From a bacterium (GTDB lineage Bacteria > AUK180 > JAQVHJ01): a DNA stretch of 29,055 nucleotides. Below the pieces are notes generated by a model. That model did no database searches, was not told the origin of the DNA, and saw only the letters and a list, made by a program, of their open reading frames with translations. Positions 25,864 to 29,055 of this stretch are shown here, piece by piece. The stretch is from the NCBI GenBank assembly GCA_028696285.1, contig JAQVHJ010000001.1, positions 1 through 29,055 of the forward strand, read 5' to 3'. The translations under genes were made by a program, and so were the position numbers. Within the stretch, counting starts at the first letter, position 1. The number at the start of each line of letters is the position of its first letter.

Positions 25864-26844
25864 ATGAGATATCTCGTAACCGGTGGGACAGGTTTTATTG
25901 GAAGTCACCTTGTTGAACTGCTTTTAAAGAACGGTCACAATGTAAGGGTCCCGGTTAGAAAGGAAAGTTCTTTAAGGTATTTGCCGGTAAAAGAGAAAAA
26001 TCTAGAATTATTCAATTGCAGTTTTTCTGACAGAGAGCTTCTTCGGAAACTCTGCAGTCATATAGATATAATTTTTCATTTAGCCGGTTCAACAAAAGCC
26101 CCAAGTAAGAAAGAATATTTCAGGGTGAACGTAGATTTCACAAGAAACATTTATATTGCTGCCCGTGAATCAGGGAGTGTTTCACGGTTTATCTTTTTCA
26201 GTTCTCAAGCATCCAAAGGATCGTCCGTGGGAAAACTCGGATTGAAAGAGAATGAATTCACCGAACCTATTTCTGACTACGGGAAAAGCAAAAGAAAGGC
26301 AGAAGAAGTTCTTTCTCGAATCTCCGGGCCAAATAGAGTGATAGTCTATCTCTCTTCAGTTTTCGGACCGAGAGACAGGGATTTTTTAACGATATTCAAG
26401 CTGGTAAAAGCAGGGATCTTTCCATACTTTGGTTTGAAGAAGAGGTATATTAACGTTGTATATGTTAAAGACCTTGTTGAACAATTATATCAAATTTCAC
26501 TGCTTGACAAAAGAGAAAACTGGTCAATTAATATTGCCAGTTCATCTATTTACACCTGGCATTCTTTTCTTGGTTCTTTATCGAATGTAATGGACAATAA
26601 ATTCCGCTTAATTCATTTACCTTCTTTTTTACAGATTCCTTTTGGAATTTATTTAGATATTCTCCATATTCTAACGGGGTCTTCCCAGGCTTTGGATAAG
26701 GATAAACTAAATGAATTAAACAAGAGATACTGGATTATGGACACAGAAACATTGTATAAAAAACTTGAACAGAAGGAGAGATTCTCGCTTGAAGAAGGTT
26801 TAAAGGAAACCTATAACTGGTATTTAAACAAAGGGTGGTTATAA
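25864..26844 (+). CDS. NAD(P)-dependent extended SDR (epimerase family); candidate ceramide/ketosphinganine reductase
   Basis: VTGGTGFIG, FHLAG and YGKSK motifs. The reductase role is inferred from gene context only. Confidence 0.8.
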   Translation: MRYLVTGGTGFIGSHLVELLLKNGHNVRVPVRKESSLRYLPVKEKNLELFNCSFSDRELLRKLCSHIDIIFHLAGSTKAPSKKEYFRVNVDFTRNIYIAARESGSVSRFIFFSSQASKGSSVGKLGLKENEFTEPISDYGKSKRKAEEVLSRISGPNRVIVYLSSVFGPRDRDFLTIFKLVKAGIFPYFGLKKRYINVVYVKDLVEQLYQISLLDKRENWSINIASSSIYTWHSFLGSLSNVMDNKFRLIHLPSFLQIPFGIYLDILHILTGSSQALDKDKLNELNKRYWIMDTETLYKKLEQKERFSLEEGLKETYNWYLNKGWL

Positions 26845-26854
26845 GGAGACCAAA

Positions 26855-28039
26855 ATGACAGATTTATTTGATAAGTGTTTAAATTATCTCGACGCAAGAG
26901 AAGCCATGAAAGCAGGGGTATATCCCTATTTTACGGAGATCAGTTCTGCCCAGGAAACGGAAGTCATGATCAACGGGAAAAAGGTTATCATGCTGGGCTC
27001 TAATTCTTATCTTGGCTTAACACATCATCCAGAAGTAATGAAAGCGGCAAAAGAAGCTCTTGATAAATATGGTGTTGGCTGTGCAGGCTCGCGGTTCTTA
27101 AACGGGACACTTGACCTCCACCGCAAACTGGAGGAAAAATTAGCGGAGTTTGTAGGAAAGGAATCTGCGATAACTTTCTCCACAGGCTTTCAGACAAATC
27201 TCGGAGTGATATCTGCCCTGGTTGGGAAAGATGATTATGTTATTATTGATAAACTTGATCATGCAAGTATAATTGACGGCTGCCGGCTTAGCTTCGGAAA
27301 AACCCTGAAGTATTTTCATAATGACATGGAAGACTTGGAGAGAATGCTAATCAAGGCAGGAGATTCAGGAAAGTTAATTGTAATTGACGGGGTCTTCAGT
27401 ATGGAGGGCGATATCTGCGACTTGCCAAATATCGTGAAGCTGGCAAGAAAATACGGCGCTCGTATTTTAGTAGATGATGCACATTCTGTAGGGGTTCTCG
27501 GAAAGACCGGCAGGGGAACTGCTGAGCATTTTGGCTTAGAGAAGGAAGTCGATTTAATTATGAATACTTTCAGTAAATCATTTGCAACAATAGGCGGGTA
27601 TGTTGCAGGCCCGGAAAATATAATTCATTATCTTAAACATCATTCCAGATCACTTATTTTCAGCGCAAGCTTACCTCCCCCAACATTAGGAGCAGTGTAT
27701 GCAGCCGTTGAAATTCTGAAAAGGGAACCGGAAAGAAGAGAGAAACTTTGGCATAATACAAATAAAATGCTCAAGGGATTTAAAGACTTGGGTTTCGATA
27801 CCGGTCATTCTGTTACACCAATTATACCGATTAGAGTGGGAGAACTCATAACAACATTAGAAATGAGAAAACGCCTTCTGGAAAATGAAGGGGTTTTTGT
27901 AAATCCCGTTGTTCCTCCGGCAGTACCTCAAGGAGACTGTCTTATCAGGACAAGTTTTATGGCAACTCATACAGATGAACAGCTTGACAGGGTATTAACA
28001 GCCTTTGAGAAGGTGGGAAAGGATTTAAAAGTAATATAA
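26855..28039 (+). CDS. spt: Serine palmitoyltransferase-like PLP-dependent alpha-oxoamine synthase
   Basis: GVYPYF, EVMINGKKVIMLGSNSYLGL, CAGSRFLNGT, DHASIIDG, VDDAHS and TFSKS (PLP lysine). These match the SPT subfamily better than BioF/Kbl (TLGKA). Confidence 0.8.
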   Translation: MTDLFDKCLNYLDAREAMKAGVYPYFTEISSAQETEVMINGKKVIMLGSNSYLGLTHHPEVMKAAKEALDKYGVGCAGSRFLNGTLDLHRKLEEKLAEFVGKESAITFSTGFQTNLGVISALVGKDDYVIIDKLDHASIIDGCRLSFGKTLKYFHNDMEDLERMLIKAGDSGKLIVIDGVFSMEGDICDLPNIVKLARKYGARILVDDAHSVGVLGKTGRGTAEHFGLEKEVDLIMNTFSKSFATIGGYVAGPENIIHYLKHHSRSLIFSASLPPPTLGAVYAAVEILKREPERREKLWHNTNKMLKGFKDLGFDTGHSVTPIIPIRVGELITTLEMRKRLLENEGVFVNPVVPPAVPQGDCLIRTSFMATHTDEQLDRVLTAFEKVGKDLKVI

Positions 28040-28056
28040 ACAGGAGGATCCTTAGA

Positions 28057-29055
28057 ATGAGCAGTATTGATATTAAAACAGTCAATTCAAAATCCGACTT
28101 GAAAAAATTTATTACATTTCAATGGAAGATATATAAAGGGGATAAAAATTGGGTTCCTCCGATTATTAGCGAGAAGATGAAACTTCTCGATAAAAAGAAC
28201 AGTCCCTTCTTTGACCATGGCTCCGCAGAACTGTTCATGGCATTTAAAGACGGGGAACAGGTCGGAACAATTGCCGCAATCAGAGATGATAACTTTATTA
28301 AATTTCAGAAGACGCAAACCGGATACTTCGGATTCTTTGAATCAATTAATGACCAGGAAGTTGCAAACACCCTATTTAAAACAGCGGAAGCCTGGAATAA
28401 AAAACAGGGATTATCCGAAATGATCGGCCCGATGAATCCGTCAACTAACGATGAATGCGGATTATTGATAAAAGGTTTTGACAGACCGCCGGTCGTTATG
28501 ATGACTTACAATCCGGAATATTATATTAAGCTTTACGAGAATTACGGATTAGAAAAGAAAAAAGATCTATTTGCGTTTTGGACAGAAATTGGAGAAAACA
28601 TTCCCGAGAAGGTTGCGCGTGTTGCTGAAGGAATGAAAAAAAGAAGCAACGTGGAAACAAGGGGTGTTGACCTTAATAAATTTAGTGAAGAGCTTGTAAA
28701 CTTGAAAAAGGTTTACAACTCCGCCTGGAGCGATAATTGGGGCTTTGTCCCTCTTACCGAGAAAGAGCTTGACCTTCTTGCAGACGGGATGAAGGATCTC
28801 GTAATTCCTGAACTCGTCCGATTCGCATTTATTGACGGAGAACCTGTCGCGTTTATTTTTACTCTTCCGGATTATAATGAAGTTTTTATTAAAATGAACG
28901 GAAGACTTTCACCAATCGGAATTTTAAAATTTCTTTGGAACAAGAAAAAAATTAAAAATCTGCGATTAATTCTTTTAGGAATTAAAGAAGAATACAGAAG
29001 AATGGGACTTGACGCGATTCTATTTTATGAATCATTTAAAGTTGCAGAAAAATAC
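28057..29055 (+). CDS. GNAT-fold acyltransferase, bacterial ceramide synthase (bCerS/YghO-like); truncated at window end
   Basis: Not in the ORF track. AGGAGG then ATG 28057, open to the end: KKFITFQWKIYKGDKNWVPP...SPFFDH...GYFGFFES...IGPMNPSTNDECGLLIKGF...MTYNPEYY...AWSDNWGFVPLT. Confidence 0.8.
   Translation, partial: MSSIDIKTVNSKSDLKKFITFQWKIYKGDKNWVPPIISEKMKLLDKKNSPFFDHGSAELFMAFKDGEQVGTIAAIRDDNFIKFQKTQTGYFGFFESINDQEVANTLFKTAEAWNKKQGLSEMIGPMNPSTNDECGLLIKGFDRPPVVMMTYNPEYYIKLYENYGLEKKKDLFAFWTEIGENIPEKVARVAEGMKKRSNVETRGVDLNKFSEELVNLKKVYNSAWSDNWGFVPLTEKELDLLADGMKDLVIPELVRFAFIDGEPVAFIFTLPDYNEVFIKMNGRLSPIGILKFLWNKKKIKNLRLILLGIKEEYRRMGLDAILFYESFKVAEKY

Follow-up and report, generated by a model that had tools for sequence, protein, structure and literature searches.

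The 29,055-bp window analyzed here is the whole of contig C241 (JAQVHJ010000001.1) of an uncultured bacterium, one of the 464 contigs of a metagenome-assembled genome (MAG) of 2.7 Mb that is 73% complete. Toward the end of the window, three adjacent genes on one strand encode a short-chain dehydrogenase/reductase (SDR), a pyridoxal phosphate (PLP)-dependent alpha-oxoamine synthase (AOS) and a double-GNAT N-acyltransferase, which we interpret as candidates for the reductase (CerR), serine palmitoyltransferase (SPT; gene product Spt) and ceramide synthase (bCerS) of bacterial ceramide synthesis. These three enzymes constitute the bacterial ceramide pathway, and their genes are often clustered (PMC11087976; PMC11334938; PMC11324152); the enzyme-family definitions used here were taken from the same three papers. 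Judged by sequence comparison and modeled folds, we consider it probable (roughly 0.8) that the cluster is a ceramide-backbone operon of the Spt/bCerS/CerR type and makes a ceramide-type lipid.

Gene order and replication origin context

The exact coordinates of the three open reading frames (ORFs), reported in an earlier note on this DNA as lying 10 and 17 nt apart, were confirmed, all three being on the plus strand (Table 1). The 10-nt gap separates SDR from Spt and the 17-nt gap Spt from GNAT, and the ribosome-binding sites GGAG and AGGAGG within these gaps indicate co-expression. The SDR gene is itself preceded, at a distance of 7 nt, by a gene for a P-loop protein of 440 residues (P440), and no other gene stands between P440 and the origin region; thus, the four genes P440-SDR-Spt-GNAT probably form one transcription unit. 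Transcription of this unit, including the P440 gene, would probably start in the region upstream of dnaA. Promoter-like hexamers occur there at positions 24444-24472 and 24480-24509, at a frequency no higher than chance in the promoter scan. A terminator scan likewise gave matches at chance level overall; neither promoter-like nor terminator-like sites fall between the genes of the operon, and an Rfam scan of the window gave no match at the gathering score.

Table 1. Features of the window and of contig C4 of the same MAG (positions on C4 are marked as such; all others refer to the window).
Feature	Position	Strand	Size and basis
P440, COG2403-type P-loop protein	24534-25856	+	440 aa; weak Pfam and PDB matches
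CerR-type reductase candidate, extended SDR	25864-26844	+	326 aa; Pfam, motifs, fold match
Spt candidate, PLP-dependent AOS	26855-28039	+	394 aa; NCBIfam, PDB, tree
bCerS-type candidate, double-GNAT N-acyltransferase	28057-29055	+	First 333 codons, open at contig end
C-terminus of the bCerS-type candidate	C4 14071-14175	-	Last 34 codons and stop, at contig end
dnaA	22417-23820	-	TIGR00362 566 bits, above cut-off; Pfam Bac_DnaA, Bac_DnaA_C, DnaA_N
dnaA-upstream intergenic region	23821-24533		713 bp; oriC-like DnaA-box cluster, likely operon promoter region
Spacer after the GNAT stop codon	C4 13950-14070		Hairpin repeats
GT4-family glycosyltransferase	C4 12175-13392	-	405 aa
tsaD	C4 10215-11201	+	In-frame TAG at codon 105

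Across the intergenic spacer from the operon, dnaA, dnaN, dciA, gyrB, and gyrA are all encoded on the minus strand. The placement of the cluster beside oriC in the earlier note agrees with this neighborhood, with the four perfect TTATCCACA boxes, the only ones in the window, which all fall within 21908-24123, and with a change in the sign of GC skew near 24000; the candidate ceramide genes lie 1.7 kb from the DnaA-box cluster and the skew switch. Upstream of dnaA there are perfect boxes at 23813, 23925, and 24115, together with one-mismatch boxes at 24098 and 24311. The perfect box at 21908 is located in the dnaA-dnaN spacer (21727-22416), the others being upstream (on the side of 23821-24533); given perfect boxes on both sides of dnaA, the origin may be bipartite. 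No dnaA gene was found near the cluster in the loci of class-level relatives, such that the origin-proximal position is limited to a narrow lineage. As this position is not conserved beyond the closest relatives it carries no functional message, and the suggestion that it hints at a core role in the cell envelope is not supported.

Enzyme family assignments

A Pfam scan of the three ORFs identified an extended SDR, an Aminotran_1_2 domain (206 bits) in the AOS, and a weak GNAT domain (Acetyltransf_1). The best-scoring NCBIfam family for the AOS is NF047600, the SPT of the Cytophaga-Flavobacterium-Bacteroides (CFB) type (580.5 bits), ahead of Kbl (424 bits) and BioF (403 bits); the score against NF047603, the alphaproteobacterial SPT type, is 362 bits. 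In a comparison with all PDB chains the best match is the SPT of Sphingobacterium multivorum (3a2b/8guh; 453.1 bits), followed by the next chain at ~320 bits, Kbl (294 bits), CapB (28eh; 277.6 bits), and BioF (225 bits). SPT is thus ahead of the second-ranked chain by ~130 bits and of Kbl by ~160 bits. The alignment with the S. multivorum enzyme covers 379 residues at ~57% identity (counted on the printed alignment), and the motifs DHASIIDG (His), DDAHS (Asp-His), and TFSKS (PLP-lysine) of the window protein align with those of the Sphingobacterium SPT. An assignment as a CapB-type cysteate-C-fatty acyltransferase is not supported, CapB not being the closest enzyme in this comparison.

Two further AOS genes are present in the MAG, one Kbl-like (contig C428) and one BioF-like (contig C222), so the housekeeping role does not fall to the AOS encoded in the window. 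A tree was built from 65 sequences, namely 61 GNAT-adjacent copies (including that of the window), Kbl and BioF of E. coli, and the two paralogs from the MAG. One branch splits the GNAT-linked copies from Kbl, BioF, and the organism's own paralogs (Shimodaira-Hasegawa-like approximate likelihood ratio test [SH-aLRT] 78). The grouping with Kbl or BioF that the earlier note had named as decisive against an SPT is thus contradicted by the tree and by the PDB and NCBIfam scores. These comparisons support the AOS as nearest to an experimentally characterized bacterial SPT and as a candidate serine palmitoyltransferase, for which condensation of L-serine with long-chain acyl-CoA or acyl-ACP is predicted.

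The GNAT gene is interrupted solely by the end of the contig, and its C-terminus is not lost: the remainder of the reading frame is found at the end of contig C4, where the fragment carries the SW-LE-N and YK-YRIY motifs conserved in the family. In full, the protein would be ~373 aa long, compared with about 375 aa in its relatives. Because the window copy is cut, an AlphaFold2 (AF2) model was computed for a full-length ortholog, P0002 (80% identical; 48-sequence alignment; mean predicted local distance difference test [pLDDT] 89.9), and fold searches were run among 550,129 Swiss-Prot models. The top match of P0002 is the Caulobacter vibrioides "Bacterial ceramide synthase" A0A0H3C8X0, with a template modeling (TM) score of 0.91 and 36% identity, in an end-to-end alignment of residues 4-372 (E 9e-41). 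It is followed by E. coli YghO (TM 0.92, 34% identity), and the remaining matches have only 11-14% identity. On the basis of the modeled fold, the window GNAT is a member of the bCerS/YghO double-GNAT family. No NCBIfam model matches the protein, and a PDB sequence search returned marginal matches only.

The relationship to the Caulobacter enzyme rests on the Swiss-Prot fold search. In a tree of 94 family members, the window protein falls in a clade of five sequences, all of them Spt-linked (96% SH-aLRT), and the second paralog of G001, a family-level relative, falls in a separate supported clade with Spt-unlinked members. The position of YghO in the tree is not settled. Two bCerS-like GNAT paralogs occur in most genomes of the class (G001, G002, G003, G005, G006, G007, and G010); they are ~42-47% identical between groups, and one adjoins spt while the other is encoded elsewhere. 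Taken together, the modeled fold and the tree support the GNAT as a candidate bCerS, for which N-acylation of 3-ketosphinganine or sphinganine is predicted.

E. coli YghO shares the double-GNAT fold and the length of the window GNAT but differs in having no neighboring spt gene. In E. coli K-12, yghO (b2981, Q46840; locus L106, 7044-8216, minus strand) abuts IS5 beside glcC and carries the annotation of a putative DNA-binding transcriptional regulator; in view of the predicted fold, this annotation looks wrong.

The SDR has Pfam matches to Epimerase, 3Beta_HSD, NAD_binding_10, and NmrA, as expected of an extended SDR. It has the N-terminal Rossmann motif GGTGFIGSH at residues 7-15, and neither this motif nor the catalytic pair Y139/K143 varies among 46 homologs. 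When the protein was modeled with AF2 (pLDDT 93.8), its top Swiss-Prot fold match was the Caulobacter ceramide reductase A0A0H3C8X7 (TM 0.84, E 1.7e-25, full length), which at 27% also has the highest identity in the list of fold matches. This predicted likeness would by itself be weak evidence for CerR; combined with synteny it is adequate. In reciprocal-type tests, the best characterized matches of the three proteins are thus SPT, Caulobacter bCerS, and Caulobacter CerR, in agreement with the roles first proposed for them.

Conservation of the cluster and alternative explanations

Genomes recovered with a GNAT profile show that the association extends well beyond this lineage. Among 80 named GTDB genomes, an Spt-like gene is located within 5 kb (<=5 kb) of the GNAT gene in 54 and an SDR homolog in 48; the usual order is Spt followed by GNAT on one strand. 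The 80 genomes represent Ignavibacteriota, Zixibacteria, Gemmatimonadota, Myxococcota, Acidobacteriota, Nitrospirota, Calditrichota, Bacteroidota, and other phyla. The order SDR-Spt-GNAT is identical in the class-level relatives G003 and G005, and the others have Spt-GNAT with the SDR gene nearby, such variant arrangements being seen in other families. In independent assemblies of the nearest relative, from other samples, the order P440-SDR-Spt-GNAT is kept and is followed by a convergent gene. With the same genes linked in many unrelated genomes, the arrangement is not due to chance. The ceramide pathway that the earlier note had read from the compact operon is therefore supported by the enzyme assignments and by linkage conserved across phyla.

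In Caulobacter crescentus, the pathway consists of Spt (CC_1162), bCerS, also named CerS (CC_1154; A0A0H3C8X0), and CerR (CC_1164; A0A0H3C8X7). The window encodes the same three enzyme families, with a soluble-type bacterial AOS as Spt. Unlike in Caulobacter, where cerS is ~8 genes from spt (PMC11324152), the three genes of the window directly adjoin one another in a single operon; its Spt belongs to the CFB rather than the alphaproteobacterial type (580 versus 362 bits, as above), and no gene for AcpR or AasR is adjacent in the window. AcpR, an acyl carrier protein (ACP), and AasR, an acyl-ACP synthetase, are Rhodobacteria-specific (PMC9386255). S. multivorum SPT, the closest solved and characterized enzyme to the window AOS, comes from a different phylum, and the clustering of the three genes in the window differs from the situation in Bacteroidota, for which a lack of such clustering is reported (PMC11334938). 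A further parallel is with the Spt/bCerS/CerR clusters predicted in environmental MAGs of 38-40 phyla in a Black Sea survey (PMC11334938), which have the same gene content and co-localization; by the rule of that survey the window would represent an "Spt-like" producer, although the habitats in which its DNA occurs are landfill and freshwater sediment.

Several points weigh against a ceramide pathway. The AOS score of 580.5 bits is below the NF047600 equivalog cut-off of 640, so that curated rules would not automatically name the protein as an SPT; this is expected of a lineage outside the seed phyla of the model. For the SDR, the lead of CerR is narrow (TM 0.84 versus 0.83-0.87 for sterol and sugar extended SDRs). 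The GNAT fold was computed for the ortholog rather than for the truncated window copy, and ~5 codons (~15 nt) between C241 and C4 are not assembled. Moreover, the bCerS family includes YghO, with scores close to those of bCerS, and many genomes hold a second, Spt-unlinked GNAT paralog. E. coli is not known to make sphingolipids, and its possession of a family member means that the bCerS/YghO family name alone is no proof of ceramide synthesis.

Of the alternatives, the one that best withstands the evidence, although we regard it as unlikely, is that the cluster makes a related N-acylated amino-lipid other than ceramide, whether a capnine-type sulfonolipid or a lipid with a 1-deoxy- or glycine-derived base. 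In the capnine route, a CapB-like AOS would condense cysteate with an acyl group, a CapC-like SDR would reduce the product, and N-acylation would follow; the combination of AOS, SDR, and N-acyltransferase suits sulfonolipids equally, the two routes sharing condensation by an AOS and subsequent keto reduction. AOS enzymes that differ in amino acid substrate are closely related, as seen in the 277 bits that CapB still scores against the window AOS, which is itself under the curated SPT cut-off, and 1-deoxyceramides are abundant in anoxic waters that hold such clusters (PMC11334938). Nevertheless, the window AOS is far nearer to a verified SPT than to CapB, the best matches of its GNAT and SDR partners are the Caulobacter ceramide enzymes rather than those of the capnine pathway, and no cysteate-synthase gene was found adjacent to the cluster among the window ORFs examined with Pfam.

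An extension of the ceramide reading to the neighboring genes is more speculative still. P440 has weak matches to Pfam cobW and, in the PDB, to cyclic 2,3-diphosphoglycerate synthetase (E 5e-5); its Atlas family is described as "putative GTPase / cDPG synthetase" (COG2403; cDPG, cyclic diphosphoglycerate), with partial structural likeness to LpxK, the lipid A kinase. In other genomes, automatic annotation names such proteins cyclic 2,3-diphosphoglycerate synthetase. Downstream, a check for further genes that the earlier note had recommended yielded the GT4-family glycosyltransferase on C4, on the strand of the operon and ~680 bp beyond the GNAT stop codon, and no dedicated ACP gene adjacent to the cluster. 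It is conceivable, and in our judgment doubtful, that P440 is an ATP-dependent enzyme that modifies sphingolipids (for example, with a phosphorylated or phosphoglycerate-type head group) and that the glycosyltransferase adds a sugar, which would amount to an undescribed head-group pathway; if so, the ceramide genes and P440, joined in one origin-proximal operon of this lineage, would make a new head-group pathway. Linkage of P440 to the ceramide cluster was seen in the contigs of the nearest relative only, and not in class-level relatives. No GT4 homolog was found near the GNAT gene in ~95 other loci, and the glycosyltransferase, not being a conserved GNAT neighbor, is only a lead. In G001, the GNAT gene is followed by a gene for a 169-aa membrane protein without a Pfam family, which was not found in the MAG using the G001 query. 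The spacer after the GNAT stop codon on C4 contains hairpin repeats with CGCAATGAC (C4 plus strand), a hairpin motif that is the same as that of a REP-like (repetitive extragenic palindromic) family at window positions 8191-9583.

It is improbable that Spt alone is a sphingolipid enzyme, with the GNAT a YghO-like protein acting on another substrate and the SDR a generic sugar or sterol reductase. Such a reading would accommodate the match to E. coli YghO, which is as good as that to bCerS, the 25 of 94 rows in the GNAT tree without Spt nearby, and the great breadth of the SDR family, with its many ~35%-identical matches named "epimerase/dihydroflavonol reductase." It sits poorly with the recurrence, in genomes of many phyla, of Spt (54 of 80; in the orientation of the GNAT gene) and of the SDR (48 of 80) close to the GNAT gene, with the placement of the window GNAT in an all-Spt-linked clade apart from the second paralog of G001, and with the short gaps and ribosome-binding sites that point to co-expression of the three genes.

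Finally, it is very improbable that the cluster arose as an artifact of assembly or binning, or is a decaying remnant without a working pathway: the MAG is incomplete and fragmented, the GNAT gene runs off its contig, and tsaD on C4 has an in-frame TAG, but the 29-kb contig that bears the cluster also carries dnaA, dnaN, gyrB, and gyrA, the identical four-gene order recurs in independent assemblies of other samples, near-identical DNA is present in runs from two studies, the end of C4 preserves the C-terminal part of the GNAT, including the conserved motifs and the stop codon, and all three ORFs are open and retain conserved residues. The TAG codon in tsaD immediately precedes the GVNH motif and falls at a conserved position. 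As tsaD is normally essential, we note that the codon could be a sequencing or strain artifact, or the gene could be a pseudogene; it does not reflect general recoding, since the other ORFs of the window are intact under translation table 11.

Predicted pathway, lineage and implications

For the ceramide-backbone pathway that we favor, the Caulobacter model (PMC11087976; PMC11324152) provides the likely sequence of reactions. Spt would join L-serine and a long-chain acyl thioester to form 3-ketosphinganine; the double-GNAT bCerS homolog would then N-acylate 3-ketosphinganine to an oxidized ceramide; and the CerR-type SDR would use NAD(P)H to reduce the 3-keto group, yielding dihydroceramide. 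The second and third steps may be reversed, as in eukaryotes; the order of N-acylation and keto reduction is disputed, including for Caulobacter. The acyl donor of Spt is probably acyl-CoA, because no gene for a dedicated ACP or acyl-ACP synthetase is adjacent to the operon, which would fit a non-Rhodobacteria type of pathway. The MAG encodes LpxC, and the window carries genes for ABC export of the O-antigen type; both suggest a diderm organism with a lipid A-containing outer membrane, in which the lipids would be located.

The GyrB of the window lineage has 92% identity to a partial sequence labeled "Firmicutes" and 77% to one labeled "Dependentiae", which are conflicting submitter labels; beyond a few relatives, identity decreases to ~57%, to Omnitrophota, Elusimicrobia, and the Planctomycetes-Verrucomicrobia-Chlamydiae (PVC) groups. 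Near-identical DNA was found in landfill and freshwater-sediment metagenomes (runs of two studies), with no RNA dataset among those listed. The organism is an uncultured, deep-branching, low-GC diderm of anoxic habitats.

The earlier note had anticipated that sphingolipid production might be extended to a poorly studied lineage; the lineage is indeed obscure, whereas the wider novelty of the claim is diminished by the clusters already known in 38-40 phyla. Earlier publications describe the three enzymes, how often their genes cluster, and how widely they are distributed among phyla, and the current understanding of bacterial ceramide synthesis is unchanged by this locus. The P440 gene in the operon and the membership of YghO in the bCerS family are side points that may be worth a small follow-up, and the compact SDR-Spt-bCerS cassette, with its 10- and 17-nt spacers, would be a convenient starting point for rebuilding the ceramide pathway in a heterologous host. 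For the distribution of these lipids, the locus adds one uncultured lineage, low-GC, diderm, LpxC-positive, and found in landfill and sediment, to the likely bacterial producers of sphingolipids.

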